This document shows, piece by piece, positions 27,331 to 62,370 of a DNA stretch of 64,000 nucleotides; positions within the stretch are counted from its first letter, which is position 1, and each line of letters starts with the position of its first letter. This stretch comes from Patescibacteria group bacterium (GTDB lineage: Bacteria; Patescibacteriota; Minisyncoccia; JAHIHE01; JAGLIN01), in assembly GCA_041670805.1 (NCBI GenBank), contig JBAXYM010000003.1, positions 16,406 through 80,405 of the forward strand, given 5' to 3'. The position numbers and the translations under genes are program-made. The notes below the pieces were generated by a model. That model had not been told where the DNA came from, did not search any database, and saw only the letters and a program-made list of their open reading frames with translations.

Positions 27331-27543
27331 ATTTTTACCTTCATTTATATGTTGAAAAGATAGACACCTGATCTGCTTTCATATTTATAATATGCCTTAA
27401 AAAGACCGAAAAGTAAAGAATAAAATGAACTTACTATCAGTCAAACGGTAGTGGTTTTTGCTTATAACAAAAACCAGATCCAATTGGATCTGGTTTCACG
27501 CAGGGGGTATGTTTGGTTTGTCCTTGTAGTTTAACATAGAAAA

Positions 27544-30646: not shown

Positions 30647-31370
30647 ATATGGGGAGATAATAAAACTGGGAGAACACAGATTATTATTTGGCGATGCCCG
30701 AGATGAAGAAAGTGTAAAGAAACTGATTGAAAATGATAAAATCAGAACAATTTTAACGGACATTCCGTATGGCATAGATTATGTGCAATCCAAGTCGGGG
30801 TTTAAACAGAATATTGCTAAGCCTAAAGAGATTGAAAATGATCAGACGCAAAGCGAAGCGGAATATATAGAATTTAATGAAAAATGGCTAAAGGCCATTA
30901 TTCCCTTCTTGGAGAAAAAGAACTCGATTTACATCTTCAATTCCGATAGGATGGTTTTTGCCTTAAGACAAGCGATGCTAAATAGCGGAATATATTTCTC
31001 TCAGCTTCTGGTTTGGGTAAAAAATAATGCTGTGATGGGAAGACTCAATTACCTTCCCATGCATGAGCTTATTGCCGTCGGATGGTACGGTACTCATCTC
31101 TTTAAAAAGAGCCAAGATAAAAGCATTCTTTTTTGTCCTAAACCCAATAAGAGCAAACTGCATCCTACCATGAAACCCGTGTCGCTTCTTCGCAGACTTA
31201 TTCTAAACAGCTCTAATATAGGCGATGTGATATATGATCCTTTCGGCGGATCAGGCTCACTTCTTATTGCCTGCGAACAAACAAAAAGAAAATGTTTAAT
31301 GGTAGAAATCGACGCGGAGTATTGCCAGACCATAATCGAGAGATATGACAGATTACCTAAGCGGAGATAA
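30606..31370 (+). CDS. DNA methyltransferase paralogue with atypical motif IV
   Basis: 254 aa; homologous to 12106-12891, but motif IV reads LTDIPYGI (DIPY instead of DPPY); motif I DPFGGSGSLLIA intact. Confidence 0.65.
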   Translation: MKNMQTQKQESSIKYGEIIKLGEHRLLFGDARDEESVKKLIENDKIRTILTDIPYGIDYVQSKSGFKQNIAKPKEIENDQTQSEAEYIEFNEKWLKAIIPFLEKKNSIYIFNSDRMVFALRQAMLNSGIYFSQLLVWVKNNAVMGRLNYLPMHELIAVGWYGTHLFKKSQDKSILFCPKPNKSKLHPTMKPVSLLRRLILNSSNIGDVIYDPFGGSGSLLIACEQTKRKCLMVEIDAEYCQTIIERYDRLPKRR

Positions 31371-32806: not shown

Positions 32807-33067
32807 AGTTTTGTAGGATAGGTTTTTTAAATTGTTTCTGGCTCAGAATACAAAAAGGGTCTTCCGAACCAGCTGGTGAATCCTTCCGGAGACACCACTA
32901 CCTCCTTTCGAAGATAGACCTATCCTACAAGTACTAGTCAGAAGACCGTTGCTATGTAGGATAGGATTTGATTACCATGCCCTGACCGAAGCCAGAGTTT
33001 AGGCAATTTATGAGTATATAGTAGCACAAATATAGAAAATGGGAAGTCTTAGTTACCTACAGTTTAT

Positions 33068-34765: not shown

Positions 34766-37174
34766 CTATAACCCTAATTTTATGTATCTATCAATCTGAC
34801 CCTTAAGTTCATGCCATGAAGTTTGACCGTCTTTCGGAAAATGTGCCAACCCTCCAGTATTACAGTAAGAATATATTTCTCTAATATCCTCTATTTTACT
34901 AACAACATCTTTTACTCTACCACTTTGTATAGCATCAAGTATATATTCAAATTTATCTTCAGAATAACCCAAATGACGATCCTTGATTTCCTCTAAGCAG
35001 TAACGGAGTTTTTGTCCATAAATTACTATCATATCATCAGTTCCAGAAACAGAATTAACATTTCGAAAGTCATTTCTAAATGTTGAATAAATCGTATACA
35101 ATTCTTTAGGCCTAAAATGTATTGATGAGGAAGCTGATTTTAATATATAATAGAAGTTTCTAGATTGTCCTAGTGCTTTATTGCAAAATTTTAGACAATA
35201 GCACCTAAAAAGCGAATCGCATGTAAAAATGAATGATTGATTATAATTTATAGCTTCTTTATATATTTGTTCAGCGGCCTGTTTTCTTTTACCTGCATCA
35301 AAACAGTTGATCGGATCATCAAATACAACAATCTTTTTATTTTTATTTTGTTGCTTGTTAAGATCAGCAAGAAAATAACTGATTGCAATGGCTTGTTTTT
35401 CCCCTTCACTTAACTCATTTAATCTGTCTTTACTATTATACACAACCTCCAAACCACAAGTAACATCACCAATACGAAGGTCGTATTTCGGGTGGGATCC
35501 TATTATCTTCAACTTCAATTCAGGACAGAAGATATTAAGATTCTTCTCTATTTCACCAAAATGTATGTCCACAAAAGTTTTAAAACTATATTCGACTTTT
35601 TTTCTAAGGGAATCAAATATTTGCCTAAGCTGTCTTATTACTTCCTTATTATCAGCTATTTTTGCTTCACATTTAAAAATATTTATTAAAGCTAAATAAT
35701 TTTTGCAAACAAATATCTCATAATTATTCTTTTCTAATTCAGAGGCTAAGTCGTTCTTTTGTTTTTCTAAAGCGCCGGAATCAATATCCAATTTTATCTT
35801 CAGTAATTTCGATTTAACTTCTTCAATAACTAGGTTGTATGCCTGAATTTTTCCATTAACATCATTTATAGCTTCCGTTATTGACGTAATATCAGCAGTA
35901 GCCTTAATCGTAATATTCCTAAGTTTACTATCAGTATTAGCAATCTCTTTTTTAAATATTTCCACTTGCGCATCAGTCAAGGAAAGATCGGGTAAAATGA
36001 ATTCTGTTCCAATAAGCTTATTAACGCATGTTATTACGTCTAAGTTATTATTTGGATTTTTAGTACCCAATATGTTCAATATGTGTGTTTTATATGCTTC
36101 AAGTGTTCTTATGGTCTTATCTTGGTTTTTTATAAATTCAGCATCAAAGATCTTTTCATACTCGCTGATTGGATCAATATATCCATTCTTATCTTTAATT
36201 CCTTGCTTGCAGAAAGGACAAATATCAAGTTTTTCTTTATTTATGATATCCGCACCTTCTCTGATAAAATTTTCCTTTTTGTTTATTTCTACAATTGTTC
36301 TAGCCGCAGACAATCCAATGGTAAAATTAAAGGCAGATTCTACTTTATTTTTATCAGGATGTACCAAAGTATTAAAAGTATCCGGTTCTACTATTTTTTT
36401 AATTTCTTCCGATTGAGATAAACTTTTCACTATTTTCTGTATGTCGCTTGATAAAATGAGTGACTGTTTTTCTATATCATCGATTTGATCTTGTAATTTG
36501 TCGGGACTCCCTTCAGTTATATTCAAAACAGCTTTTTTGACTTCATCTTGTCCATAAACAGATGTAATCGAAGAATAACTAGTGTCGTTTTTTATCCCTA
36601 GACCACGATTAACCTTTTCTAATTTATCAATCAGCTGAGATAGATTATCAAGTTGGACTTTATATTGAAAGAAATCACCTAGATATAGCATCAATTTACC
36701 TGTGTTTTTATTATGATTTGCATCCCTGCCAGTTCGAGAAGAATGTATGAAATTTTCTATAAAATCTCTATCGAAAAATAAAATCTTATCTTTGAGAGAA
36801 TCATTTTGTATGCCGTTTACGTCATCATAATTAATTGCACCAGAATCAGTTTCAATAACAAAAGAACTTGTATCACCTTCATGATCCCAATGTTTCTTTA
36901 AAGATTCCCCTGAATCAGTATTTAAGCTTTTAAAAATTTTTACAATAGTGGTCTTGCCAGCACCATTTTCTCCAAAAAATACGTTATGTTTATTAAATTC
37001 ATTTTTTATTACCTTAGGATTCCCGTTTTTGTTTGATATAGGTTGTCCGTGTGCATCAAAAACTAGTGAGGGATTTGAAGAGTCCCAATCAAAGAGGAAA
37101 AACGAACCAATATTGCTAATCGTCGTTAGTTTACTTATCATTTTCTTTTTGTTGCTCGACCCAGAAATGGCCAT
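34766..37174 (-). CDS. ABC/SMC-like ATPase with a coiled-coil insert carrying a Rad50-like CxxC zinc hook (RloC-like architecture); C-terminal domain of unknown function
   Basis: 802 aa; Walker A FFGENGAGKTTIVKIF, signature-like LSEGEKQAIAISYFLA, Walker B IVVFDDPINCFD, central LDICPFCKQG between heptad-rich segments. Confidence 0.5.
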   Translation of the reverse strand: MAISGSSNKKKMISKLTTISNIGSFFLFDWDSSNPSLVFDAHGQPISNKNGNPKVIKNEFNKHNVFFGENGAGKTTIVKIFKSLNTDSGESLKKHWDHEGDTSSFVIETDSGAINYDDVNGIQNDSLKDKILFFDRDFIENFIHSSRTGRDANHNKNTGKLMLYLGDFFQYKVQLDNLSQLIDKLEKVNRGLGIKNDTSYSSITSVYGQDEVKKAVLNITEGSPDKLQDQIDDIEKQSLILSSDIQKIVKSLSQSEEIKKIVEPDTFNTLVHPDKNKVESAFNFTIGLSAARTIVEINKKENFIREGADIINKEKLDICPFCKQGIKDKNGYIDPISEYEKIFDAEFIKNQDKTIRTLEAYKTHILNILGTKNPNNNLDVITCVNKLIGTEFILPDLSLTDAQVEIFKKEIANTDSKLRNITIKATADITSITEAINDVNGKIQAYNLVIEEVKSKLLKIKLDIDSGALEKQKNDLASELEKNNYEIFVCKNYLALINIFKCEAKIADNKEVIRQLRQIFDSLRKKVEYSFKTFVDIHFGEIEKNLNIFCPELKLKIIGSHPKYDLRIGDVTCGLEVVYNSKDRLNELSEGEKQAIAISYFLADLNKQQNKNKKIVVFDDPINCFDAGKRKQAAEQIYKEAINYNQSFIFTCDSLFRCYCLKFCNKALGQSRNFYYILKSASSSIHFRPKELYTIYSTFRNDFRNVNSVSGTDDMIVIYGQKLRYCLEEIKDRHLGYSEDKFEYILDAIQSGRVKDVVSKIEDIREIYSYCNTGGLAHFPKDGQTSWHELKGQIDRYIKLGL

Positions 37175-37375
37175 CAGAGATTAACCTTTTTTCTAATTCT
37201 TCTGAGGTATCCTCTAAGCTGATAAGGCTTTCAGCTAGAGATTTTAAGCCATTATCCTGAGTTTCGGATATAAAATTTATTAATAGATCGTCCATGTAGT
37301 TAAGAATCTAGTTTATTTAATTACTCAATTAATGGGGCATATAACATTTTTACTTTGATCAATATTCGCCCCATT

Positions 37376-40300
37376 TTATTTTTCCAATGATTCTACAAAT
37401 CTTAATAATTTTTTAATCTCTCCTTCTTTATCTTGGAACCAATTCGTTGACCAAATACGATAAACAATGAAGCCCATATTTTCCAGTTCTTTCTGTCTAT
37501 ACATATCATAAGCATAGGCTTCTTCTGAAGAATGGTATGCTTTTCCGTCACACTCTAAAACTACGTCCTTAGACCCTGTCTTAATCACAAAATCTAATCG
37601 AAAGCCGCCAACCTTATATTGTTGAATGATATTGTCTTTTTCAAAATGATCTAATAATAATTCATAAACTTCTTCTTCAAATGGAGATTCAGATAAACCA
37701 TCTGTGCTAGAGATGATTCTAGGTTTTTCGAAACTTTGTGTTTTTAACAGTTTCAATATATTATCAGCACATTCATTGTCATGATTCGAGATTGCTTCGG
37801 CATAAGCCAAATACGCGTACAAAATGCCTTTCTTGTTATTGCCTTCGTTTTTTATTATTTCAGAATAGGCAAGGTATTTATCCTTTGGAATAGAAGTACA
37901 TACATAAAGCTTATGCTTTGCTCTCGTAATCAAAACATTCAATAATTTATACCCCTCGATCCTATTCAATCGCGCAAAATTCTGAGAAAACGTTCCATCT
38001 GGTTTAATTCCATAAGTAGTTGAAATGATTATAATGTCTTTTTCGTCACCCTGGATATTTTCCAGATTTTTAACAAATAAGCCTCTCTCCCTTAACTCCT
38101 GAAGTTTTATTGCAAACTCAGAATCATTTTCAGCCACCTCGTTTAAAGCTTCCGTTATCAAATTTCTTTGATTTATATTGAAAGTCGCTATTCCCACGGA
38201 TGGATATTTGCCTTTTTGGTCAGGATGGATCTCATCTCGGATAATTTTCAGGATTTCGGCTATTTCGGCAGGATTAGTTCTTGTTTCATACCTACCATTT
38301 ACAGCTCTGAATTCAATGGGTTTATAAACTTCTTGAGCAGGAAAAGAAATCAAGTTGCCTCCATAAAATGCGCTATTGGAAAATTCGATAAGGGCCGGAT
38401 GGTTTGATCTATAATGAAAGTCCAAATATGACTTATTGATATTTTGTAGATCCGTCGCATATTGGAGCAAAGACTCACTCTCAGCAAGAACATTCTGTTC
38501 ATCCTCTTCGTTAAAAACATCATCGTTATCTTCTTTTTCTTCAAGATCAAGCGCTTCAATCGTACTTTGAAAATAATTTGATGGTGGCATTTGATGTTCA
38601 TCTCCGGCAATAATTTTATATTGTCCCCGAATTAAACTTGTGAAAGTATCAGGTATTCTAAGCTGACTTGCCTCATCAAAGATAACAATATTAAAAAGTC
38701 CCTGTTTGAGAGGCAAAATCGCATTTGCGGCGGCAGGATTTGTTAAGATTACTGGAAATAATGTTGTAAACAAATCGAAATCTTTTTCAATTATATTTCT
38801 TAACGAATTCTTCGGACCAGCATTGTTTCTTCTTAAGTTATAGAGAGTATTAAAATTAAAAGTAATTTCAGACAGCTTGTGATTTCTATTATCGTTCCAA
38901 ACGGATTTGATTTGCTTAATTTGTTGCTTTTCTAGCTCTTTGTATAGAACAGTTAATTGTTGTAATTTGGAATCAGATTTGTGGAAACCTATACCTGTAT
39001 TAGATTCATAATTCAAAAGTGCCCCTCGATAATACCAAGCATTGAAGATGTTTTTCCAATTTTCTACTGGGAATCTCTTAAAAGCTGATAAGATTTGCAA
39101 TTCAAATTCATTCTTATTACTGCAAAAATATTTCCAATTATGAAAACTTTCGTACGAATCCAGGTAACTTTTTATTTTCTCAATCTTATTTTTAAGTTCT
39201 AAATAATATTTGCATACCGATTCATGACTTCCTAAATCGCCATAATTTATCAATTCAAAATCAAAGATTTCATCTTTCTTAATTTTAGCTAAATTCGTCT
39301 CTGCTTGTTTCAGTTTAATTTCGATAGCTTGTATCATTTTGATTTTGGATTCAGCACTCCTAACTTTAGATAAGACCTCAGATACATTACTTTTCAACTG
39401 CTCATATGAATTATATTCTTTGAAATCTGGCATTTTCCGTATTTCAAAATTAAACTTTTCCATTTCCAAAATAGATTTCGATACAGAATCATACAATACA
39501 GAAATTTTCTTTCTGATAGTGAAAATTTTTCTATTTTCAGCATTGGCAATAGATGAAAGACTAAGCAATAGATCCTGCCAATAACCTTTACTATTAAAAC
39601 TGCTACGATTTAAAGCAATACCTTGCTCATATAAATTAATAATTTCTTCTAGATTTTCTATAGCATTTAGTACGACAGCGCCACTTTCCTCTACAGTTTT
39701 TGGCACAAATAGAGAAACATTCTTTTCTTCACAGTCATTCTGCTCCTTGTTCGATAAGAATAAATATATGTTTTCTATAATTTCTAGGAATTTACTTGTC
39801 TCATCTTTTATTTTTTCCTGCGTTGCCCATTTATATCCTATTGAAAATAGACGATGATCTAGCATTTGAAAAATTCCTTCCGCATTGTTTTCTAAATCGC
39901 CAAAGAGAAAACTGCCTTCTTCCACTAGTGATAAATAAGTTGAATACTCTTTATGGCTAAATTCTAACTTTCTATAATCTAATATTGAATTTATCTGATC
40001 TATATCTCCAGATTTTGAAAATCTCAGATATAATCCTATCAACTGTTTCCACGAAAAATCACCGAAAACTTTTTTTAGTGATTCGGCATGCTTTGAATTT
40101 ATTTCTCCTTTAAGCTGACAGAATTTATTATATTTATCATTAAATTCTGATTCGGAAAATAAAGTATTATGTGAGCATTCTTTAATATTTCTAGCCCTTT
40201 CGATAGTCTTTTTTCTGTCTTTATTCACATCGTCGATAACCATTGAAAAATCTTCTAGTCCTATCTTTTCTAAATTTGCATGGATAACATCAAGAGCAGT

Positions 40301-41566
40301 CTTTTTCTCACAAACGATTAAGCATGTAGCATTATTTGCCAAAGCATTAGAAACAATTGCGGTAATGCTTTGACTTTTGCCAGTACCAGGAGGACCTTGA
40401 ATCAGTTTAATTTCATCTTTTGTTAAAGTGTTCACGATCTCTTCCTTGCTTGGATCAGTCTCAACTGCAGAAATAGTAGATGTCTGAAATTTTTCTAAGA
40501 CTAATTTTTCACTTTCGAATTCTTCAAATCTCTCAAGTAGCTCTTCCGTGGAATGAATAATAGTTTCGTTCTGTGATCTATAAAGGCCAAAGACCCCACT
40601 CCATTGTATCCAAGGTTTAGAATTAGCAATCGCCTCAACCTGTTTTGCATCGGGACATTTCTCAATCTTTATTTCTAAATTGTCTACCTGAGAATTTAAC
40701 TGGGATAAAATATTTTTACTCAATGCTATAAGTTCGTTTTGGTCTAATATTCCATCTTCCAGTATCTTTTCTGATATCTTTTCAATCTGAACAGATTCAT
40801 CTTTCGATAAATGAGAAACCAGTAGTTCGTTTATCTTAATTGGCGAATCCTCCTCTTTTTTGATTGTCCAAGTATTCTTATTCTGATAAGAACGCTGAAT
40901 ATCTAATTGCCAAATAAAAAGAGGAGCTTTTATAATCTTCGTAGGATCATTTCGATCACGCTTTATTAATATAGGATATCCAAAACCAAAATTTTTAAGC
41001 CCAAACTCCAAGAAATTGTCTTCATTCTCTATTACGATAGCATTTAATCTCTTCGATATAAGTGCAAGTCTTTTCTTTTCCTCCTCATCTATTTTTCCTA
41101 AATCAATTTTGTCATAGGAAATTGAAAATGAAAAAGACTCATTGTTAAGAATCGTTTCGATAAAATCAAACGGCATTTTTTGATCCACACTCATTAATTG
41201 GCATAAATCGAGACGGATCGCAGAACGTCCCGGAATTACATTCAGATGAATAGAACGAGCATTCCCAACCTTTAGTTTATCGAGCAATCTCTTTACGAAA
41301 TTTTTATCAAATTTTATTTGCGATATTTTTTGCTGAGCTTCTTGATTGCTTACATTAGAGTGCATTTTAGTTGTTTTGTCAGTGAAAACAGCAGTGGAAT
41401 TATCTTCTGTTTTTGTGGTTGTCGATATTTTTTTGTCCTGCTTCATTACTTCTTGCTTACAATAGGAACAAACTGTTCCACTTTTTACTTTATGATTTTT
41501 GCATACAATGCATAGGGGCTTATTTGCCCAATATGCTTGTGCGTCAAACTTGCGATAAGATTTCAT
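37376..41566 (-). CDS. Giant Upf1/DNA2-like SF1 helicase with an N-terminal zinc ribbon and a C-terminal Vsr/DUF559-type PD-(D/E)xK endonuclease domain
   Basis: 1396 aa; N-terminal CIVCKNHKVKSGTVCSYCKQ; Walker A LIQGPPGTGKSQSITAIV; motif II IFDEASQ; C-terminal GFRLDFVIKTGSKDVVLECDGKAYHSSEEAYAYDMYRQKELENMGFIVYRIW. Confidence 0.65.
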   Translation of the reverse strand: MKSYRKFDAQAYWANKPLCIVCKNHKVKSGTVCSYCKQEVMKQDKKISTTTKTEDNSTAVFTDKTTKMHSNVSNQEAQQKISQIKFDKNFVKRLLDKLKVGNARSIHLNVIPGRSAIRLDLCQLMSVDQKMPFDFIETILNNESFSFSISYDKIDLGKIDEEEKKRLALISKRLNAIVIENEDNFLEFGLKNFGFGYPILIKRDRNDPTKIIKAPLFIWQLDIQRSYQNKNTWTIKKEEDSPIKINELLVSHLSKDESVQIEKISEKILEDGILDQNELIALSKNILSQLNSQVDNLEIKIEKCPDAKQVEAIANSKPWIQWSGVFGLYRSQNETIIHSTEELLERFEEFESEKLVLEKFQTSTISAVETDPSKEEIVNTLTKDEIKLIQGPPGTGKSQSITAIVSNALANNATCLIVCEKKTALDVIHANLEKIGLEDFSMVIDDVNKDRKKTIERARNIKECSHNTLFSESEFNDKYNKFCQLKGEINSKHAESLKKVFGDFSWKQLIGLYLRFSKSGDIDQINSILDYRKLEFSHKEYSTYLSLVEEGSFLFGDLENNAEGIFQMLDHRLFSIGYKWATQEKIKDETSKFLEIIENIYLFLSNKEQNDCEEKNVSLFVPKTVEESGAVVLNAIENLEEIINLYEQGIALNRSSFNSKGYWQDLLLSLSSIANAENRKIFTIRKKISVLYDSVSKSILEMEKFNFEIRKMPDFKEYNSYEQLKSNVSEVLSKVRSAESKIKMIQAIEIKLKQAETNLAKIKKDEIFDFELINYGDLGSHESVCKYYLELKNKIEKIKSYLDSYESFHNWKYFCSNKNEFELQILSAFKRFPVENWKNIFNAWYYRGALLNYESNTGIGFHKSDSKLQQLTVLYKELEKQQIKQIKSVWNDNRNHKLSEITFNFNTLYNLRRNNAGPKNSLRNIIEKDFDLFTTLFPVILTNPAAANAILPLKQGLFNIVIFDEASQLRIPDTFTSLIRGQYKIIAGDEHQMPPSNYFQSTIEALDLEEKEDNDDVFNEEDEQNVLAESESLLQYATDLQNINKSYLDFHYRSNHPALIEFSNSAFYGGNLISFPAQEVYKPIEFRAVNGRYETRTNPAEIAEILKIIRDEIHPDQKGKYPSVGIATFNINQRNLITEALNEVAENDSEFAIKLQELRERGLFVKNLENIQGDEKDIIIISTTYGIKPDGTFSQNFARLNRIEGYKLLNVLITRAKHKLYVCTSIPKDKYLAYSEIIKNEGNNKKGILYAYLAYAEAISNHDNECADNILKLLKTQSFEKPRIISSTDGLSESPFEEEVYELLLDHFEKDNIIQQYKVGGFRLDFVIKTGSKDVVLECDGKAYHSSEEAYAYDMYRQKELENMGFIVYRIWSTNWFQDKEGEIKKLLRFVESLEK

Positions 41567-42331: not shown

Positions 42332-43651
42332 ATGGAAATAAACGGACTTCAGACCGCAAACCAGACAATCATAGCGAAGGAAGAAATAAAGTATTGCCTC
42401 TATGCCCGCAAATCAACCGAATCAGAGGAACGGCAAATCCTCTCAATTGATAGCCAAGTCAAAGAGATGCTGGATCTGGCAAACCGGGAAGATCTGAATG
42501 TTATAGAAATAAGGCGAGAATCACATAGCGCTAAAGAAACCGGACAGCGCAAGGTGTTTAATGAGCTTGTAACAGATATTAGGGCAGGTAAATTCAATGC
42601 CCTCCTCACTTGGGCCCCGGACAGAATATCACGAAATGCTGGAGATTTAGGAGCGATCGTAGATCTGATGGATCAAGGAATATTAAAAGAGATCAGAACT
42701 TACGGTCAGAAATTTAGCAATAACCCAAATGAAAAATTTTTGCTTATGATTCTAGGATCGCAGGCGAAACTGGAAAATGACAACCGAGGAGTCAATGTCC
42801 GGCGAGGATTAAGGACAAGAGCAGAGATGGGATTATGGGTAGGATTGGCACCTCTCGGATATTTGAATCAAAAACGAATGGATAAGAAATGTCAGGTTAT
42901 TCCAGACCCATTAAGATCTCCAGCTATTAAACAGATATTTGAAAAAGTGGCGTATGAGAAATATAGCGGACGACAAATACATAACTGGCTCAAGCATGAT
43001 CTTAACTTTTATACCAGAGGAAACAAGCCGCTAACTTTAAGTGGAGTTTATAGAGTCTTAGACAATCACTTTTACTATGGCATGTTTGAAAGGCCAGTTG
43101 GAAGCGGAAATTGGTATCATGGAAAACATAAAACACTTATTACCCAAGAACTTTTTGAGAAAGCGCAAGCACAACTTAAAAGAGATAAGATTGTCAGAGA
43201 AAATAAGGAATTTGCATTCACCAAACTAATTACCTGCGGGCTATGTGGTTCAGGAATATCAGCCGAAGAAAAATATAAAGAATTGAAGGATGGAACCACA
43301 GCTCATTATATTTATTATGGATGTAGTCGAGCAAGAGACAGATTTTGTAAGAACAAATATATTAGAGAAGAAGAACTCGTTGTTGAACTTCTTAAGATAA
43401 TTGATAAGGTAGATATAAACGAACTTGGAATGCTGACAAGACTTGAGATGGAAGTTGATAGATTCAATAAATTCCAAAACATGGTCTTTGGAGAAAAACT
43501 TAATAATAAAAAACAAAAGCCCGCAGTTGATATGCGGGTTTATGCAAAATATGTGCTTAAAGAAGGAAGTGTGACAGAGAAGCGAGAGTTATTAGCTAAT
43601 CTGAGGAGTAGAATAATATTGAGAAATAAAAAGCTAATATTAAATGATTGA
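42332..43651 (+). CDS. Large serine recombinase (paralogue of 21692-23014)
   Basis: 439 aa; same catalytic and zinc-ribbon motifs; near-identical over most of its length; preceded by a ~120-bp leader conserved with 21560-21690. Confidence 0.8.
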   Translation: MEINGLQTANQTIIAKEEIKYCLYARKSTESEERQILSIDSQVKEMLDLANREDLNVIEIRRESHSAKETGQRKVFNELVTDIRAGKFNALLTWAPDRISRNAGDLGAIVDLMDQGILKEIRTYGQKFSNNPNEKFLLMILGSQAKLENDNRGVNVRRGLRTRAEMGLWVGLAPLGYLNQKRMDKKCQVIPDPLRSPAIKQIFEKVAYEKYSGRQIHNWLKHDLNFYTRGNKPLTLSGVYRVLDNHFYYGMFERPVGSGNWYHGKHKTLITQELFEKAQAQLKRDKIVRENKEFAFTKLITCGLCGSGISAEEKYKELKDGTTAHYIYYGCSRARDRFCKNKYIREEELVVELLKIIDKVDINELGMLTRLEMEVDRFNKFQNMVFGEKLNNKKQKPAVDMRVYAKYVLKEGSVTEKRELLANLRSRIILRNKKLILND

Positions 43652-43661: not shown

Positions 43662-45152
43662 TTATTTATCTTGCTTCTCGTGTTTAATGATATCCCAATA
43701 TGGTTTTGCATAATCTTCTCCCTCTATGTCTTTAAGGAGCTTAATTTGCTTTTCTGGAATTTCAGCTATTAAGTGATCAAGATAATCTAAAAATTCATTT
43801 TTATTGTTAAGTGAAAAAACTTGTGATTTAAATTCTTTTAGCCTGAGATACCCCGGAGTGCCTTTGGGGAATTCTTTTAAAAGCAAAGCCGATTCCTTAT
43901 CTACAAAAAGAGCATCACAATAAGGTAAATAGCTTGAGATAAATTGAACATCTACTGTTGATTTCGGAGCATCTTTTTTCCCATTAGCAGCTCTATAAGC
44001 TAGCCCTGCAAACATAACAGAATTGATTTTAATAGCTGGGATTTCAAGTAATGAATCAATATCGCAAAGATATTTGGCAATTGTTGGTAGTATCTGAGTA
44101 TCTGGTAAATTGTTTACTTTTGTATATTCCCTGGTAATTTTAAATAATGTTTCCCATATATCACATGAAAGTGGTGGTAGTATATCATCCATTTCAAAGT
44201 TATAAAATTCTCCTGCTGCAATTTTTTTAGCAGCTATCTCCCTTCTTTTAGCAAATTGCTGTACGGCACCGCATATACCTTTTCCAAAACCTAAAGTTTC
44301 TTCCTTTACTCTATCAATAAAATTTGCTCCTTCGTCTTGCCATCTAGTCCATATTTCCTGAAGCTGTTCCTTAGTTAAAGCATTAATTTTATTAAGACCT
44401 TCAATTTCTCCAGGATAAGGATTAGCATTGACAGACACTCTTAGCCCTAATGACCAAGTATGTAAATTCTTAAAAGATATACCCTCTGGAAAATAATCAA
44501 ATTTAACTTTCTCATTATTCAGCCATCCCTTAAAATGAGTTTCAACTTGCATCCTTTCAATAATAGCACTTGGATATAGTGTTTTACCACATGAAAAATG
44601 CTCATATAATCTTCTCATTAATTTGAAATCTATTTTTCCGGTTAGCGATTCATTCAAATGATAAAAACTATCCGGACAGACGATTGCCTGAGATTTAGAG
44701 GCAGCTTCAAGTTTTGTAAATAGAGATTCCCAAAAGGGATCTGACATTATTTTTTGATGGCTTGGGTGCGTATTATCTAGTAGTTTGATTAAATTACTAA
44801 TGACAAACTGATCCAAATAGATAACTTTCTTATTGATTGGCGGCAAATCGTACACTTCTTGATAGCCGCATTCGGTACATTCTCTCGTGTAGGAAGACAT
44901 GCCTTCTATGCATGTTAGCACCCCAAAAGAATCCTGGACTTGACATTCTGGGTTGGGGCATTGTTTATATGGACCAGAAATAAAATCACGGCGCGTTATC
45001 CTCATACTTTTTTTCTCATTTACAACAGTTTCTTGATTTATTCTGTCCATACAGCACTTTTTATATTTTTTACCACTTCCGCAAGGACATGGATCATTTC
45101 TTCCAACTTTATCCATTTTGGTTAGGCTAAGGAAATTAATAAATTCCGACAC
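43662..45152 (-). CDS. SEC-C motif (SecA C-terminal-type metal-binding) protein with an additional zinc ribbon
   Basis: 496 aa; N-terminal [18 protein letters not shown]; later CPNPECQ...CTECG. Confidence 0.4.
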
Positions 45153-45228: not shown

Positions 45229-45834
45229 TTACTTGGTGTAAGAGATAATGCCCTTTACAATTCCTTCGATTCTAAAATTGTTTTTATTGGCCAAAAAAGG
45301 CTCGAAGGATGGGTTTAAAGAAACAAGGATAATATCGTTTCCAGTTTTTTGAATTTTCTTAATCAACGCTTCGTCATTATTCACGCATACTACCATATCT
45401 CCATTATCTGCTTTATTATTTTTTTGGACGATTACCAAATCGCCACTTTTTATTTTAGGTTCCATAGAGTTGCCTTTAGCTCTAACCAAAAAAGCATCCG
45501 AAGAAGAAAATCCCAGTATCTTTGTTGATATAGGTACCCTTTCTATTGGATTACCATCCAAAATTGATCCATTTGGGCCGCATTGCGCCATTCCGTATAA
45601 GTTTAAAAATGCAATTCTCTTATCCGGAGAATCAATCAAGATTTGATAATCCTGTGGATTCCTGGGATTTCTCCTTAGATATCCTTTTATTTCAAGTTGT
45701 CGGACATGATGATGAATTATGCTTGTCGATGATATATCTAATTCATCTTTTAGCTCTCTAACGGTCAAAGGATCTTCGATATTATCCTTTAGTAAAGCAA
45801 GTAATTTTTGCTGTGTAGGATGCAGTTTCTTCAT
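45229..45834 (-). CDS. LexA-like repressor (N-terminal wHTH plus C-terminal S24 peptidase, Ser/Lys dyad)
   Basis: 201 aa; AKGNSMEPKIKSGDLVIV (Ser nucleophile) ... MVVCVNNDEALIKKI (Lys); divergent from the Ubl/E2-E1 operon. Confidence 0.6.
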   Translation of the reverse strand: MKKLHPTQQKLLALLKDNIEDPLTVRELKDELDISSTSIIHHHVRQLEIKGYLRRNPRNPQDYQILIDSPDKRIAFLNLYGMAQCGPNGSILDGNPIERVPISTKILGFSSSDAFLVRAKGNSMEPKIKSGDLVIVQKNNKADNGDMVVCVNNDEALIKKIQKTGNDIILVSLNPSFEPFLANKNNFRIEGIVKGIISYTK

Positions 45835-45956
45835 AAAATTACTTATATTTATTATTTATTATACCATGTGGATAATATGTGTGCAAGAACTTATTGACCT
45901 GTTCTAGTATTTGTTCTATACTGAATTTAAATTAAATAATCATAAGTAACAAAACT

Positions 45957-46235
45957 ATGAGCAACTCAGAAGAACACAAGGGCGAAGCGCCTGGTCAGAA
46001 CAAAGAATCTACGATAATTGTAAATGGCAGGGAAAAAATTGTAACTGGAAAAGAGTTAACCTTTACTCAAATTGTCGAATTAGCTTTTGGTCCTTCAACA
46101 AATCCAAACACTATTTATACGGTAATCTATAAGAAAGGTGATAATGACAAGCCTGAAGGTACTATGGTAAATGGTGATAAGGTTAAAATTAAGAATAAGA
46201 TGATATTCAATGTCACAGCAACTGATAAATCATAG
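45957..46235 (+). CDS. Small beta-grasp ubiquitin-like candidate protein
   Basis: 92 aa; first gene of a three-gene overlapping operon with the E2::E1 fusion; mixed K/G beta-strand pattern (GDKVKIKNKMIF); C-terminus is not Gly-Gly. Confidence 0.35.
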   Translation: MSNSEEHKGEAPGQNKESTIIVNGREKIVTGKELTFTQIVELAFGPSTNPNTIYTVIYKKGDNDKPEGTMVNGDKVKIKNKMIFNVTATDKS

Positions 46236-47385
46236 CCCTGATCTAAAAAGATTAAGGGATGACGGTTTTGAAATAGAAATTGTATCAGGTTACCTTTTGA
46301 TTAACAATGTGCCCTATTTTGATTCAGATAAAAAGCCTGTATACGGTACTCTTATTTCAGAGCTTACTTTGGCTGGAAATAGAACGACAAAACCCAATAC
46401 TCATGTTGTTCATTTTAAAGGTGTGTATCCTTGCAATAAGGATGGATCGGAGATAGAACAAATCAGGCATAATAGCAACTTGCAAACGCTTGCCGATGGA
46501 TTAGTGGTCGACCATTCATTTTCCAATAAACCGCCCGAAGGATACAATGACTATCATGAGAAGATGACAAGATATATAGATATTATTTCTGCCCCGATCC
46601 AATCAATGGATGGTTCTATTACAGCAAAGACATTTAAGCCTGTCGAATCTGAGGATGAGGATTCCGTATTCCATTATATTGATACAAATTCTAGCAGAGC
46701 AGAAATCAACCTAATTTCCGACAAATTAAAATATCATAAAATAGGAATCATCGGATTAGGAGGTACTGGTTCTTATATTTTAGATCTTATCTCTAAAACG
46801 CCGGTAAAAGAAATTCATCTTTTCGATGGAGATAAATTTTTGCAACACAATGCGTTCAGAACGCCAGGAGCAGCATCAATTGAAAAACTGAAAAAATGCC
46901 CGACCAAAATCGAATATCTTAAAGAGATATATTCGAACATGCATAAGAATATTTGCCTGCATCCCGGCTTTCTTGATTCCTCAAACATTGAACAATTGTT
47001 TGGCATGGATTTTATCTTTATTTGCATAGATAAAGGCGAAGTAAAAAAACTAATATTTAAATATCTTGAGGAGAAAAATATTCCCTTTATTGATGTAGGT
47101 ATGGGAGTATCTATCGTAGATAATAAATTATTTGGAAATATCAGGACTACTTCCAGCAAGGAAAACAAACGAGATCATATAAAAACGAGGGTCCCTCTTG
47201 TAAGCTTGGAAGATGATGAATATTCAACTAATATTCAAATTGCCGAACTTAATGCACTCAATGCGGCATTTGCTGTAATAAAGTGGAAAAAAATATGCGG
47301 ATTTTACCTCGATCAAGAAAATGAGAATAATAGCACATTCGCAATCAATTTAAATACATTAATAAGCGATGATCATGATTCATAA
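46210..47385 (+). CDS. E2-like domain fused to an E1-like (ThiF/MoeB-family) adenylation domain
   Basis: 391 aa; C-terminal Rossmann [17 protein letters not shown] plus downstream Asp (LFDGD); N-terminal ~150 aa with an [15 protein letters not shown] Cys-containing motif; overlaps both neighbouring genes. Confidence 0.55.
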
Positions 47386-47791
47386 ATTTGTCGAAAATAT
47401 TCCAGACAATCTAGAAGAAGGAACTATCTATATTTCTATTGAATATGGAACTGTTGTGCATAAATGCTGTTGCGGATGTGGAAACGAAGTGGTTACACCG
47501 CTTTCACCAACAGATTGGCAATTGATATTTGATGGTGAAACTATTTCACTTTACCCTTCAATCGGAAATTGGAATTTTGATTGCAAATCACACTATTGGA
47601 TAATTAATGATAGGATTAAGTGGGCAAGAAAATGGTCTAAGCAGGAAATTGATGGTAATAGGCAAAAAGATAGTTTAGATAAAAAGAAATATTATAGTCC
47701 TAAAGATTCGTTTTATAACAAAGAAATACACAGTGAAAATAATAAAGGATTAAAAAACCTATTGAATATGATTTCTCGTTTCTACAGGTAG
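47369..47791 (+). CDS. Small protein with a Cys-cluster (zinc-binding) motif, third gene of the Ubl/E2-E1 operon
   Basis: 140 aa; [11 protein letters not shown] ... FDCKSH. Confidence 0.3.
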
Positions 47792-47857
47792 TATGAAATT
47801 AGTCTTTAGTCATAAAGGTCGAAAAATAATACAACTTCAAATTTTATTAGCATGAAA

Positions 47858-47912
47858 ATACCCAGCAAAAGCTGGGTATTCGGGTCTATCCGATACTTTG
47901 TTGTCTTGGCGG
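47858..47912. repeat. ~54-bp repeat Y copy 2 (dyad hairpin, tRNA downstream flank and last 6 nt of tRNA-Ser); right end of island B
   Basis: atacccagcaaaagctgggtattcgggtctatccgatactttgttgtcttggcgg; duplicated at 27544-27596. Confidence 0.7.
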
Positions 47913-47996
47913 AAGAGGAGGGATTCGAACCCTCGAGACCCGTTAAGGTCTACTGCTTTTCGAGAGCAGCGCTTTCAACCACTCAGCCACCCTTCC
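47907..47996 (-). tRNA. tRNA-Ser (anticodon CGA), type II with long variable arm, CCA encoded
   Basis: rc reads GGAAGGGTGGCTGAGTGGTTGAAAGCGCTGCTCTCGAAAAGCAGTAGACCTTAACGGGTCTCGAGGGTTCGAATCCCTCCTCTTCCGCCA; anticodon loop CUCGAAA with U33 and A37; T-arm GGTTCGAATCC. Confidence 0.85.
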
Positions 47997-48157: not shown

Positions 48158-51100
48158 CTATTTCTTTAGCAGGTCTATCATTTGGAAGGTGTGATCTTTG
48201 GAGCTGGTGAAAATTATATAACCTTCGTATAAGAAGTAATCCATCGAGGTGTCCGAATCCGGCAAGTTGACGAATTTTAGTTCGACTCCATTGTACATGG
48301 CCGGCTGGAAAGTGGTCGTGCCTTGTTCGATTATGCGGGAGTTGACGAAGATGCTTTTCATAACGGCGTAGATTTTTTTGTTCTGGGTATTGGTTCCCGC
48401 CCAGCTCGACATAATGTCTTTGAATTCTTCCTCTTTGGATGCGCTATATTTGAACACCAATCCGAGCCGCAAATAGCCGTTATCTTTGAATACCAATATG
48501 TTGTATTCGGGAGAAATGGCATTTATAAAATCATCGGGAACGTTCGAGGCGTTACTTTCGCCGAGAACGGTTTTGAGCGCTTCTTCCCGTGAAAGCATAA
48601 CGTCTTGATTGTCATAGGTAATATTTAATCTGACAACGTCTCCGTCACTGAAAGATTTCCAAGGGTCCAAATTGGCATCGAAATAATTCAGGGTCATGAC
48701 TTGGCTTTGCTTGGCGGAAGAGGCGGCCGTAATCTTTTTGTCTATGTCGGCAATGCTTTCGCCTGCGACTATTGTTGTTGACTTTTCCGTGGTAGCGGTG
48801 TTTTTGGCTGATTTCAATTTTGGCAGGACCATGGTCAAGAATCCGCCGAGAATTGCTAAAAATACGATTCCTATAACAGCAACTTTTATTCGCGAGGAGG
48901 CGGAATTTTGGGTGCCGTATTTTTTGGCGATATCCCGTTTAAATCTCTTCCCCTTTTCTTCTTCACTCAGTTCTATCTCCCTCTCTTTTAAAACGTCATC
49001 CAGACCGTCAAGATTTTCCGCCTCGGTCCTGGGCTTGATGGCTTTGTGCATTGTGCTGTAAAATTCCTGTTTTCCATGAATCAATCTGTTCTCGGGGTCC
49101 ACATAAGAAGAATTTTCTTGTTTTCTCTCTCGAATTCTTTGCTGCGCAGTTCTTACATTATTTGGCATAACCAGCCCGGTCTCTTCGGGTCGCGCTGTGT
49201 ATGCGGTAGGTTTGTCATAAGGAGACGTGTCAATCTTCGCCGTTCCTACTGCTCTTTGCTGCGGATTTACCGCGGGTTCTTTTATGGTGTTCTGGATTTT
49301 TTCCCAATAGAATTTGTCTGCGTTTATTTTCTCCAAAAGTCCGGTACTTTCATTGTCTGTTTTTGTATTGTTTTGCTCGGCCGGTAAGGTCTCTTTTGGA
49401 TATTCCTCTGCAGTGGACTTTTCTTTTTGCAGACTGCTTGACATTCGGGCAAGCAGATCTTTGAGATCCTTATCTTTGTCAGGCTTGGTGATTGTTTGGG
49501 GTTGATCGGAATAATTTTTTGCTGATGTCTCCATCGAGTTCGAGACTCTTTTGATTAGATTTTTCATTTCTTCGTCTTGCACGCTTGGCGCTATAGTCTC
49601 CTTGGCGGCTAGTTCTATCGCAGCTTTTTCCTCTGAAGGAGGAGTGTCTGCAGTTGCTTTGAGATCACTCAAAATGGAGTCATCTGCTTGTGACGGTTCT
49701 TTTACTTCTGCCAAATCGCTCCTCTTGCTTTTTCGAAGTGCATTCCAAAATGCCTCGCTCGAATCCGTTTTTTCTTCTGTGCCTGCGTCAATATCACTAT
49801 CCGGTTGGATTTCCGATGCATTCTCTTCCGGCTTTTCTTCGAATAGTGCTTCTTTTTTTACCCGCTCTTCCTCTTCCGCCTTTTGTGCGGCTTCCCGTCT
49901 CTTGTTCGTTTCTTCTTCTTCGGCTGCTTGTGTTTTTATGGCTTCCTGTCTTTTTTCTTCCAACTCTTTTTGCCTCAGCCGCTCTTCTTCTTTAATTCTA
50001 TTTTCTTCTTCCTGTCTTGATCTTATTTCCTCATCTGCCCGTTCTTCCGCCTCCGCTTGCTCTTTTTCTTCTCGGATTGTGCGTTCATTTTCTTCTTCCA
50101 ATCTTTTCTGCTCCTCTTGTTTCAATCCCTTGCCTCCTATCTGTTTTGCCGTCTCTTCTTGTTGCTCGTCTTCCTCCTCTTTGATTTGATTTAAAGTGTC
50201 TAACTCCCGTTTCTTTGCTTCTTCCAATTCAATGATTTTTGCCTTCATTTCCGCGATGAGTCTTTCTTCGGCCTCTCCTCTTTCGGTTCCTTCCTGCATG
50301 GAATCCGATATGCCTTTTGTCAGATTGGCTATTTGCGCGTCTTTTGCCCGGATTGTTTCTTGAAGTTTCCCGATCTCTTCTTCTCTATGGACATTTTGCT
50401 CCTTGAATTGTGCAAGAATACCCTCCCTATTTTTCCGTTCCTCCTCTCTTATTTTAGTGATAATTTCTTGCTCAATTTCTTCTTTTTTGGGAGTGTCTTT
50501 TCGCAGCGTAGCGGAAATTTCTTTCATAAAATCGGAGAGTTGTACTTCCTGCACCTTCATCTGCGCAAGAATGTCCTCTTTATTTCTCTTCTCTTCCTCC
50601 AAAATTTTTACTCGCATTTCCTCAACAAGAGCTTCTTTTGTCAGAGGATTAGAAGTGAGCTTGATCAAATTCGCGATATCCGCTTCTTGCGATTTAATAG
50701 CTTCCCTAAGTCGTGTCGCTTCCTCGGCGCGCTTGGTATCTTCTTCCCGCAGTGCTTGCTGTGCCATTTTTGCTTCCTGTAATCTCAGAGACTCTTGCCT
50801 TTTTAATTCTTCTTGCGCTTTCTGCACTTCCTGCATCCGCATCTCTTCCCGCTTTTGGATTTGTGCCAGAATAGCCTCTTTGTTTTTCTTTTCCTCTTCC
50901 AGCACCTTTGTTCTCATTTCCTCGATGATCGCTTTTTTGGATTCTTCCGCCTTGACTTCTCCTTGGATCAGAGAGCTTGATACTTCCTTGAGTATGTTGG
51001 AGATTCTGGCTTCCTGGGCTTTGAGTGCTTCTGATGCCTTGTTTTCTTCTTGTTTGCGCAGCTCTTCCTGTTTTTTTACATCTTCCATCGCCTTCCATAT

Positions 51101-51799
51101 TTCCCGCCTCCGCGCTTCTTCCTGCTTTTGTATTTGTGAAAGAAGATCTTCTTTGATTTTTTCATCTCCTCTTCTGACTTCTTCCAGAATTTCTTTTTTT
51201 ATTCCGGCATCTTCAGAGTCTGTCGTATCTCGTATCTCGTATCTCGTATCTTTAATCTTTTCAAGCTCTGCAAACTTTCTGATTTCCTCAATTTTTTTCC
51301 GCTCTTCCGCATTTTGCTTAGTGGCTTCCGCCGCTTTAAGCTTTTCAATTTCTCCGGGCTTTACAATCCGTTCGGTTTTTCTGACCTCTTCTATTATGGG
51401 CTTTTCAGTTCTCTTCCCAGCTTGAACCGGAGGTTCCGCGAGTGGAACCTCTTTTCTTTCGGTTATTTTTTTTTGCAGCCTTGCAAAAAAATTATCCTCC
51501 TTTTTGTCTTTCTTTTTTTCTTGCAGGGTCGGAGGCAGAGAGACGCCGAGGCCCTTTTTCTCAAGATCGCCTCTTATGTCCGCGAAGTTCCCTCTCTCGG
51601 TTTTTGCAGGAATATTGCGAGCCGGTGTCTTTGTCTGAGATATGGCGGTGGCGATATTAGCCTGCTGTTGCGGTAACGGCTTTTGCGTCAAATCGGTTTT
51701 TCTCTCCGGTTCGGGTTTTTTAAAAATCTTTCTTCCTGTCTTTGTATCTTGGATTTCCGTGAGATCGTCCTGCATTGTTCTAAGAATTTTCTGGCTCAT
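48158..51799 (-). CDS. Giant E/K/R-rich coiled-coil protein with a single TM helix and a ~230-aa C-terminal extracytoplasmic domain
   Basis: 1213 aa; ~950 aa of low-complexity charged heptads, TM VAVIGIVFLAILGGFLTMVL, then a globular C-terminal domain; contains a 7-nt x4 repeat at ~51216-51245. Confidence 0.5.
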   Translation of the reverse strand: MSQKILRTMQDDLTEIQDTKTGRKIFKKPEPERKTDLTQKPLPQQQANIATAISQTKTPARNIPAKTERGNFADIRGDLEKKGLGVSLPPTLQEKKKDKKEDNFFARLQKKITERKEVPLAEPPVQAGKRTEKPIIEEVRKTERIVKPGEIEKLKAAEATKQNAEERKKIEEIRKFAELEKIKDTRYEIRDTTDSEDAGIKKEILEEVRRGDEKIKEDLLSQIQKQEEARRREIWKAMEDVKKQEELRKQEENKASEALKAQEARISNILKEVSSSLIQGEVKAEESKKAIIEEMRTKVLEEEKKNKEAILAQIQKREEMRMQEVQKAQEELKRQESLRLQEAKMAQQALREEDTKRAEEATRLREAIKSQEADIANLIKLTSNPLTKEALVEEMRVKILEEEKRNKEDILAQMKVQEVQLSDFMKEISATLRKDTPKKEEIEQEIITKIREEERKNREGILAQFKEQNVHREEEIGKLQETIRAKDAQIANLTKGISDSMQEGTERGEAEERLIAEMKAKIIELEEAKKRELDTLNQIKEEEDEQQEETAKQIGGKGLKQEEQKRLEEENERTIREEKEQAEAEERADEEIRSRQEEENRIKEEERLRQKELEEKRQEAIKTQAAEEEETNKRREAAQKAEEEERVKKEALFEEKPEENASEIQPDSDIDAGTEEKTDSSEAFWNALRKSKRSDLAEVKEPSQADDSILSDLKATADTPPSEEKAAIELAAKETIAPSVQDEEMKNLIKRVSNSMETSAKNYSDQPQTITKPDKDKDLKDLLARMSSSLQKEKSTAEEYPKETLPAEQNNTKTDNESTGLLEKINADKFYWEKIQNTIKEPAVNPQQRAVGTAKIDTSPYDKPTAYTARPEETGLVMPNNVRTAQQRIRERKQENSSYVDPENRLIHGKQEFYSTMHKAIKPRTEAENLDGLDDVLKEREIELSEEEKGKRFKRDIAKKYGTQNSASSRIKVAVIGIVFLAILGGFLTMVLPKLKSAKNTATTEKSTTIVAGESIADIDKKITAASSAKQSQVMTLNYFDANLDPWKSFSDGDVVRLNITYDNQDVMLSREEALKTVLGESNASNVPDDFINAISPEYNILVFKDNGYLRLGLVFKYSASKEEEFKDIMSSWAGTNTQNKKIYAVMKSIFVNSRIIEQGTTTFQPAMYNGVELKFVNLPDSDTSMDYFLYEGYIIFTSSKDHTFQMIDLLKK

Positions 51800-56099: not shown

Positions 56100-56290
56100 A
56101 CACCGGTTTTGCATTCGGATCACACTAGAAATGGTGTGAAATTCTACACAAGAACGTTCTGTCCCGCATGGTTCACATCATTTCTGATGTGATCCGAAAT
56201 ACGGAAATTCACAATTCGAAATTCATAAATCCATAATTCAAAATACGCCGGGTGTGTTAAAGATTGTCTACCGGATCATAACCATGTATT
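56100..56290. repeat. IRE copy (reverse orientation) with flanking ataattcaaaatacgccgggtgtgtta segment
   Basis: ggatcacactagaaatggtgtgaa...ggttcacatcatttctgatgtgatccg; matches the other IRE copies and the window start. Confidence 0.7.
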
Positions 56291-58319: not shown

Positions 58320-58440
58320 GCATTTTGACTTATGAATTTTCGGATCACACCAGAAATGGTGTGAACCAAGCAGGACAGAACGTTTTTGCGTAATATTTCG
58401 CACCATTTCCGGTGTGGTCCGGATGCAAAGTTGGATTTCC
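58320..58440. repeat. IRE copy
   Basis: ttcggatcacaccagaaatggtgtgaaccaagcaggacagaacgtttttgcgtaatatttcgcaccatttccggtgtggtccggatgcaaag. Confidence 0.7.
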
Positions 58441-58445
58441 GATTT

Positions 58446-62146: not shown

Positions 62147-62350
62147 TTTTCACTATCTCTGGTGTGATCCGAATGCAAAAATGCATTTATGAATTTCGGA
62201 TTTTTGTATTATGGATTTTGAATTTATGAATTTCCGGATTCCGGATCACATCAGAAATGATGTGAACCACGCGAGATAGAACGTTTTTACGCAGCATTTC
62301 ACACCATTTCCGGTGTGATCCGAATGCAGTCAGGATGCAGTCGGAAATGC
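62040..62350. repeat. Two tandem IRE units between the two glycosyltransferase genes
   Basis: Units at ~62085-62175 and ~62240-62330 with flanking ttcggattccggattccggat and tatggattttgaatttatgaa motifs as at 7.1-7.4 kb. Confidence 0.7.
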
Positions 62351-62370
62351 AGTCTGAATGTACACTGCAT

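Follow-up and report, generated by a model that had tools for sequence, protein, structure and literature searches.

A probable Type II Bub operon with a divergent LexA-family repressor gene in a patescibacterial serine-recombinase island

Bacterial ubiquitination-like (Bub) operons, formerly called 6E or DUF6527, have been described by Ye, Gong, Chambers and Corbett (bioRxiv 10.1101/2024.11.21.623953) and in a companion study by Gong et al. (10.1101/2024.11.21.623966). The Type II class (6E.2) is defined by the gene set BubA, BubBD and BubE (Ye et al., 10.1101/2024.11.21.623953). Escherichia coli BubBD follows an oxyester route through the serine S106 of its E2 half and Y342, a tyrosine of the crossover loop; adenylation requires R219, and mutation of S106, R219 or Y342 abolishes conjugation. 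The Type II E2 serine is described with "lysine+histidine" companions, and BubE as a new kind of serine protease, equipped with a C4 zinc site and a Ser-His dyad, that strips BubA from conjugates (10.1101/2024.11.21.623953, 10.1101/2024.11.21.623966). According to the same two papers, the E. coli and Citrobacter operons under study lie in mobile elements at tRNA genes. Regulators reported beside Bub operons are CapW (8%), CapH+CapP (31%) and CapK+CapS (59/544), and regulators that respond to DNA damage control other Bub operons (Bub and CapK/CapS literature). As far as these sources are searchable, LexA/S24 is not mentioned in the Bub papers, the Bub supplement or the CapK/CapS literature. Here we analyze an operon of this kind, together with the LexA-family gene divergent from it, in a 64,000-nucleotide stretch of a Patescibacteria group genome (assembly GCA_041670805.1, contig JBAXYM010000003.1, positions 16,406 to 80,405), referred to below at its full length as the window, which corresponds to ENA contig ERZ27249489:k141_614727.

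The gene set of the window operon is exactly the published Type II Bub set. We consider it highly probable that the locus is a Type II Bub operon with a divergent LexA-family repressor, carried as cargo of a serine-recombinase island beside tRNA-Ser. The operon is one more example of an already described system, with a single-domain ubiquitin-like protein (Ubl), and the LexA regulator is its uncommon feature. Bub examples from the candidate phyla radiation (CPR), namely from Candidatus Yanofskybacteria, are already catalogued in Table S1 of Ye et al. (10.1101/2024.11.21.623953). An initial annotation, made from the sequence alone, had listed the open reading frames (ORFs), their overlaps, the 122-bp divergent gap and the adjoining tRNA-Ser; all of these are reproduced by the ORF map and tRNA scan, as follows.

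45229-45834, minus strand: lexA-family repressor gene, 201 aa (ORF map)
45835-45956: divergent intergenic region between lexA and bubA, 122 bp
45957-46235, plus strand: bubA, 92 aa (ORF map)
46210-47385, plus strand: bubBD, 391 aa, 26-nt overlap with bubA (ORF map)
47369-47791, plus strand: bubE, 140 aa, 17-nt overlap with bubBD (ORF map)
47907-47996, minus strand: tRNA-Ser(CGA), 115 nt past the bubE stop codon (ARAGORN and Rfam)

The operon and its three proteins

The operon was compared with 10 genome and 35 metagenome loci that encode BubBD relatives at 43-62% identity. The Bub loci compared come from Pseudomonadota, Bacteroidota, Cyanobacteria, Chloroflexi and one archaeal metagenome-assembled genome (MAG). 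The order bubA-bubBD-bubE is kept in 10/10 genome loci. Counting loci in which both gene ends are readable, the bubA stop falls exactly 26 nt past the bubBD start in all 10 genome loci (L001-L010) and in L050, L056 and L057. A three-gene arrangement with constant overlap across such distant phyla is not due to chance. We note that the same nucleotides (46210-46235) encode, in two frames, the C-terminus of BubA (NVTxTDKS) and the N-terminus of BubBD (MSQQLIN). Such dual coding may be part of the reason why both termini are so strongly conserved. Profile searches detect no JAB/JAMM peptidase domain in the operon proteins or their neighbours and no CD-NTase gene in the operon, in agreement with the initial annotation.

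That annotation read the genes as a ubiquitin-like conjugation operon, composed of a Ubl and an E2-E1 fusion, and the Pfam assignments bear this out. BubA matches Multi_ubiq (PF14452, 1.2e-16 in the profile search), and BubBD matches DUF6791 (1.5e-57) followed by ThiF (6e-13). Over its whole length, BubBD also matches NCBIfam PRK06153 at 3e-179. Its two domains are arranged as follows.

Residues ~1-140: E2-like domain, with His65, Ser105 and Lys107
Residues ~165-391: E1 adenylation domain, with G182-x-G184-G185-T186-G187, Arg217 and the crossover-loop Tyr338, and no Cys in the loop

His65, Ser105, Lys107, Arg217 and Tyr338 are invariant in a 9-sequence alignment. When 39 sequences of closer relatives are aligned, no substitution is seen at Ser105, His65, Arg217 or Tyr338, and Lys107 is kept in at least 90%. 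The ATP-loop residues G182, G184, G185, T186 and G187 are invariant in the alignments. Ser105 sits in the same sequence context as in E. coli BubBD (WFSNKP), and His65 and Lys107 match the published Type II histidine and lysine companions in the alignment. The initial annotation had flagged a cysteine, Cys75, in the N-terminal E2-like region. This residue is His in one relative (L006) and the family acts through Ser/Tyr oxyesters; the E2 nucleophile is predicted to be Ser105.

The AlphaFold2 model of BubBD has a predicted local distance difference test (pLDDT) score of 84.7. Foldseek ranks Citrobacter BubCD structures (E 4e-12 to 2e-11) first among its PDB matches, with UBA5, MccB and MoeB behind. 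A sequence search of PDB chains with BubBD returns generic E1 proteins only (MccB, TcdA and UBA5) and no Bub structures. The N-terminal domain is a Bub-type E2 with the BubB/E2 fold; modeled separately, residues 1-142 reach a pLDDT of 93.1. The likeness to Cap2-type fusions that had been proposed holds for the domain order, E2 then E1, but the PADLOC Cap2-type "E1-E2" models match the E1 half only, aligning to residues ~136-316.

BubA consists of a single beta-grasp domain with a short disordered N-terminus and a conserved C-terminus ending in FNVTATDKS. It aligns to the crystallised E. coli BubA (PDB 9cd2) at 1e-11, and both proteins end in TDKS. Because the terminal T-D-K-S is kept in all of the relatives examined (10 genome loci and L050), the absence of Gly-Gly is a family norm. 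The description of the 92-aa protein as beta-grasp-like and without a terminal Gly-Gly was correct, as shown by its Multi_ubiq match and TDKS end. Nothing points to a need for C-terminal processing, which had also been raised; an end in TDKS is the norm for Type II BubA.

We give virtually no credence to the idea that these genes form a sulfur-carrier or cofactor pathway (ThiS/MoaD with ThiF/MoeB) or an MccB-like peptide-adenylating system. The E1 half does match ThiF, MoeB, TcdA and MccB at low significance, but the NCBIfam ThiF and MoeB models score only 18-39 bits on BubBD against cut-offs of 159-275. BubA lacks the Gly-Gly terminus of such a pathway, the N-terminal half of BubBD has the BubB/E2 fold, and the setting is a mobile defence island in which profile searches find no thiazole, molybdopterin or rhodanese genes nearby. 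Neither a ThiS/MoaD-type carrier nor a non-E2 N-terminal domain, the combination against which the initial annotation had cautioned, was found.

BubE matches Pfam DUF6527 (PF20137, 7.7e-26 in the profile search), and its comparison with PDB sequences yields no match. The putative zinc ligands Cys33, Cys35, Cys37 and Cys72 and the dyad residues Ser64 and His75 are all conserved in a 10-sequence alignment, with a spacing that resembles C57/C59/C61/C99, S92 and H102 of the Citrobacter protein. Like its relatives, BubE carries an amphipathic C-terminal tail. The initial annotation saw in this Zn-cluster protein an unusual third component and found no obvious deconjugating peptidase in the operon. 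Both statements have to be revised: the protein is the BubE/DUF6527 component of a known system and, judged by its family and conserved residues, it is predicted to be the deconjugating Ser-His/Zn peptidase of that system.

The same annotation regarded the operon as a possibly undescribed minimal module. A novel Ubl-conjugation defence module, with a new Zn-cluster effector in place of a deconjugating peptidase, is in our view very improbable. It could draw on the PADLOC 2023 collection, in which neither the Ubl nor the DUF6527 protein has a model, and on NCBIfam, where the E2-E1 fusion is still named "hypothetical protein". However, the exact architecture, including the DUF6527 Ser-His peptidase, has been published as Type II Bub (6E.2) by Ye et al. 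(10.1101/2024.11.21.623953), all of the defining residues are present, the BubE dyad included, and BubBD has at least 7994 homologues at E ≤ 1e-20. The call of a possibly new defence system therefore resolves to a system published in 2024-2026 and does not merit further treatment as a novelty.

On the model of the homologous E. coli and Citrobacter systems, conjugation by the window proteins would proceed in four steps. The E1 half of a BubBD dimer would adenylate the C-terminal carboxylate of BubA (Ser92) by means of Arg217 and the GxGGTG ATP site. BubA would then be handed as an oxyester to the crossover-loop Tyr338, move onward to Ser105 of the E2-like half with the assistance of His65 and Lys107, and finally be joined to target lysines. 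As a Zn-stabilised Ser64-His75 peptidase, BubE would take BubA off its conjugates and act as a negative regulator.

The LexA-family repressor and the shared control region

The repressor combines an N-terminal winged helix (LexA_DNA_bind, PF01726) with a C-terminal autoprotease domain (Peptidase_S24, PF00717) and scores 116.1 bits with the NCBIfam lexA equivalog TIGR00498 (cut-off 110.95). In the alignment to E. coli LexA structures, Cys85-Gly86 superimposes on A84-G85, Ser123 on S119 and Lys159 on K156; C-G is the dipeptide also cleaved in UmuD. The minus-strand gene thus appears to encode a complete LexA with cleavage site and Ser/Lys dyad. Together with the domain and equivalog matches, this alignment upholds the initial description of a divergent LexA-type helix-turn-helix (HTH)/S24 autoprotease repressor that shares the 122-bp region. 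An identical protein from a Patescibacteria-group MAG is annotated as LexA by NCBI. Approximately 970 relatives are found at E ≤ 1e-10. The best 120 of these share 61-78% identity, and the named relatives among these 120 are mostly from Patescibacteria, Parcubacteria and Margulisbacteria. No close LexA relative is present in IMG/VR, which yields only CI-like S24 domains at 28-35% identity.

Within the intergenic region, the following elements are predicted.

45857-45920: conserved bidirectional control core, 64 nt within 45835-45956
45881-45886 and 45858-45863, minus strand: -35 (TTGCAC) and -10 (TATAAT) of the lexA promoter
45894-45899 and 45917-45922, plus strand: -35 (TTGACC) and -10 (TATACT) of the Bub promoter, 17-nt spacer
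45900-45906 and 45912-45918: tandem TAGAACA boxes, N5 apart (predicted operator)
45886-45905: palindrome AGAAC-N10-GTTCT, bridging both -35 elements

Both TAGAACA boxes fill the spacer of the Bub promoter, the second reaching 2 nt into the -10, and an inverted copy lies directly against the -35 of the opposite-strand lexA promoter. The lexA and Bub sites are the two best promoter-like sites of the intergenic region (10/12 each), and the only strong site upstream of bubA is the one that holds both boxes. The tandem-box motif and the palindrome each occur once in the 64 kb. The initial annotation had proposed to look for LexA-box-like palindromes in 45835-45956, where AGAAC-N10-GTTCT is the palindrome present. 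Six lexA upstream regions (including those of the window, L050-L053 and L055) share the pattern TAGAACA-N5-TAGAACA-(A/G)GTCAA-N3/4-GTTCTTGAC(A)-17 nt-TATAAT, with a degenerate second box in L055. Among 108 loci, the exact tandem TAGAACA motif is found upstream of lexA genes only. As a separate observation, a 40-nt repeat (73% identical) is present at 18090-18129, in the first island, and at 56122-56161, in the host flank. Both copies end in the palindrome-containing CAAGAACGTTCTG, which has GAAC/GTTC half-sites as in the LexA-promoter motif and lacks the spacer.

From this layout, the repressor would bind the TAGAACA repeats, which lie within the Bub promoter's spacer and -10 and abut the -35 of its own promoter, and would silence both genes. 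Self-cleavage at Cys85-Gly86 by Ser123/Lys159 would follow upon DNA damage, or upon phage replication yielding RecA filaments, and lexA and Bub would both be de-repressed. The purpose served may be anti-phage defence or a general stress response. A DNA-damage control logic parallel to that of CapH/CapP had been suggested in the initial annotation; the idea is reasonable, and the conserved predicted operator in the Bub promoter gives it added weight.

The pairing of lexA with Bub recurs in a locus from another MAG (L050, GCA_043820875.1), which was found by starting from LexA relatives and not from Bub loci. There, too, a LexA relative (71% identity) diverges from a Type II Bub operon, whose BubBD is the closest relative of the window BubBD (67% identity). 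Compared across the two cassettes, protein identity amounts to 58-71% and coding-DNA identity to 70-72%, whereas the promoter/operator core is identical at 58/64 positions (91%). Because the core is conserved to this extent against 70-72% in the flanking coding DNA, the pattern points to selection acting on the control region.

Other Bub loci carry other regulators, and where upstream sequence is retained these are for the most part CapH/CapP-like. Several genome loci have a small HTH gene and a gene of ~305 aa at the upstream divergent position, and by our own reading of the sequences alone these pairs appear CapH/CapP-like. The next-closest BubBD relatives after L050 have an HTH_3-Peptidase_M78 fusion upstream. 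We take the LexA gene of the window to be a genuine, if rare, case in which one DNA-damage sensor has replaced another.

The LexA family extends beyond Bub. Some members stand in housekeeping surroundings (L052 and L053), and others are ahead of restriction-modification genes (L048, L051 and L050/L055) with unrelated genes on the divergent side. A search across loci for a divergent gene shared by these lexA members, for example an SOS division inhibitor, showed the partners to be mutually unrelated. Since the same lexA promoter recurs with unrelated divergent genes, the predicted bidirectional promoter belongs to lexA, and Bub is one of several cargos opposite. It is possible, though doubtful, that lexA and its bidirectional operator-promoter constitute a portable SOS switch for defence cargo in Patescibacteria, Margulisbacteria and related uncultured lineages, with restriction-modification systems downstream and variable cargo (Bub, an AGS-C/SMODS-type gene, small unrelated genes) opposite. 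As for the restriction-modification genes themselves, they directly follow the lexA relatives on the same strand in L050 (6001-10990) and L055 (6001-10949), and also in L048 and L051. A cluster of Eco57I-type, methylase, Alw26I-type and HTH genes is syntenic between a low-GC (guanine plus cytosine) "bacterium" MAG and a Margulisiibacteriota MAG, with 46-68% protein identity, which suggests that lexA travels with defence cargo.

Several points weigh against the assignment of the locus as a Bub operon under LexA control. A LexA neighbour is found in 0/45 other Bub loci (10 genome and 35 metagenome), and the same LexA promoter architecture also occurs where the divergent neighbour is unrelated or absent. 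The TAGAACA motif is unlike the LexA boxes known to us. A Foldseek search with the model of BubBD residues 1-142 gives no significant E2 match, and every mechanistic step set out for the window proteins rests on homology. Finally, Bub operons are not known to protect against phage, and heterologous challenge in E. coli has so far come out negative for other Bub operons (10.1101/2024.11.21.623953, 10.1101/2024.11.21.623966).

The first two points would fit a locus in which the Type II Bub operon is real and lexA a mere neighbour. LexA would then regulate itself and possibly other genes, Bub would be expressed independently, and both would be cargo of the same island slot. In close LexA relatives the promoter and predicted operator do persist where the surroundings are of housekeeping type or where small unrelated genes lie opposite, and the BubBD relatives nearest after L050 have the HTH-Peptidase_M78 regulator instead. 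We judge this explanation unlikely, as both TAGAACA boxes lie inside the 17-nt spacer of the sole strong bubA promoter-like site, the intergenic region is just 122 bp long, and the cassette and its predicted operator are kept in L050 despite ~30-40% protein divergence. Control of the Bub promoter by the divergent LexA is the reading that we retain.

Island setting and neighbouring features

The module belongs to a block at ~8-48 kb whose GC content, 31-38%, is low beside the 43-51% of its flanks. Near 7.5, 27.6 and 47.9 kb, direct repeats mark three junctions; the 3' end of tRNA-Ser is included in the one at 47.9 kb. The features of the block are listed here.

7497-7600, 27539-27697 and 47854-47932: element-end repeats, 81-88% identity
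47854-47912: att-like right end of the island, direct repeat with 27539-27617 (81% identity)
21584-23014 and 42332-43651 (the latter on the plus strand): large serine recombinases, 92% identical and 20.6 kb apart (Pfam)
43662-45152, minus strand: SEC-C-motif protein, 496 aa, convergent with the serine recombinase at 42332-43651 (Pfam)
Slot of the first element: PDC-S53, 902 aa (1355 bits, PADLOC)
Within 14803-19840, 24622-27330 and 34766-41566: island cargo, comprising the PDC-S53 protein above, PifA-like protein (875 aa) and type III restriction endonuclease (REase)-like protein (801 aa) (PADLOC)
Same three blocks: PDC-S06 AAA_13 ATPase, 802 aa (PADLOC)
Same three blocks: PDC-S37/Hhe-like helicase-nuclease, 1396 aa, with REase_MTES_1575 nuclease domain (PADLOC)
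29378-31370: ParB-methylase and N6_N4 methylase genes

The block looks like two tandem sibling integrative elements of ~20 kb each, next to tRNA-Ser. Each recombinase is ~5.5 kb from the right end of its own element, and the variable slot from recombinase to right end is occupied by PDC-S53 in the first element and by LexA and Bub in the second. A hairpin in the att-like right end probably terminates the tRNA-Ser transcript. The initial annotation also placed the operon in a defence or mobile context, and islands whose cargo matches candidate defence families in PADLOC support this. Reduced CPR genomes can evidently stack defence cargo on tandem serine-recombinase islands.

The SEC-C-motif protein was considered as part of the LexA unit and rejected, since its relatives pair with the serine recombinase and not with LexA. 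Apart from the SEC-C zinc motif at its N-terminus, no domain can be recognised in it. Its family comprises ~130 proteins, the source-named members being mostly from CPR, and is encoded convergent to, and often overlapping, a large serine recombinase at element ends (e.g. L058 and L059). The protein is unrelated to the 515-aa protein at the equivalent position of the sister island. We count it with the element core, and it may serve such elements as an accessory factor.

Further features of the window include a LOOT RNA (Rfam RF03000) at 32875-33005 on the minus strand, which scores 63.7 bits against a gathering score of 46.4 and is found in the second island between two unannotated genes. A 132-nt repeat family is represented by five copies, 64-79% identical to a reference copy, in 7145-7404, 58342-58473 and 62092-62374; these repeats sit outside the islands in the higher-GC host flanks. 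Just beyond tRNA-Ser, and next to the PNPase and S15 genes, 48158-51799 on the minus strand encodes a protein of 1213 aa that is rich in Glu and Lys, repeat-like and unmatched in Pfam.

Comparison with described systems

The main clue so far to the role of Bub is the wiring of many operons to DNA-damage sensors (CapW, CapH+CapP, as well as CapK+CapS). The presence of Bub under a predicted LexA operator in two diverged genomes would provide independent comparative support for this clue, and suggests that DNA-damage induction is the selected feature, whichever sensor delivers it. If the portable-switch proposal is true, LexA would add a fourth class to the "controllers of adjacent pathways" of Bub and further immune operons, one coupled directly to RecA. 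LexA is also a simple regulator for reporter work, the LexA/RecA chemistry being well understood.

The BubA-BubBD-BubE operon of E. coli ZDHYS365 has the same three genes in the same order and no JAB peptidase. Residues Ser105, Tyr338 and Arg217 of the window BubBD occupy places equivalent to S106, Y342 and R219. Both operons encode a TDKS-ending BubA and a BubE with a C4 zinc site and Ser-His dyad, and both lie in a mobile element at a tRNA gene. The systems differ in that E. coli BubA has three beta-grasp domains and the window BubA (92 aa) one, though single-domain BubA is the already described Ubl1 class (Ye et al., 10.1101/2024.11.21.623953). The host here is a Patescibacteria MAG, and the operon is accompanied by a LexA/S24 repressor in place of CapW, CapH+CapP or CapK+CapS.

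More distant counterparts are found among the other prokaryotic ubiquitin-like conjugation machineries. Cap2 of Type II CBASS has the same E2-then-E1 order, but it uses catalytic cysteines, is accompanied by a JAB peptidase (Cap3) and conjugates a CD-NTase rather than a Ubl; the window operon has no such partners. Bil (BilA-D) relies on a separate E1 (IAD-AAD-CYS) and E2, catalytic cysteines and a JAB peptidase, in contrast to the fused E2-E1 of the window, which has no JAB partner or CYS domain.

On the regulatory side, the locus resembles those controlled by CapH+CapP, CapW/BrxR and CapK+CapS in Bub, CBASS and other immune operons, in that a repressor gene adjoins the operon promoter and de-repression by DNA damage is expected. 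CapP, like S24, acts by proteolysis of the repressor. Here a single LexA-family polypeptide takes the place of the HTH and M78 metallopeptidase pair, the WYL sensor or the kinase/STAS pair, and unlike those controllers it would presumably be triggered directly by RecA filaments. The chromosomal lexA of Bacillus subtilis offers a second point of reference: it has a divergently transcribed SOS gene, yneA, and the operators in the short bidirectional control region between them serve both promoters. The window shares with lexA/yneA such a short bidirectional control region at lexA. It differs in that the partner gene set is a horizontally mobile Bub operon, and that both lexA and its partner reside inside an integrative island.

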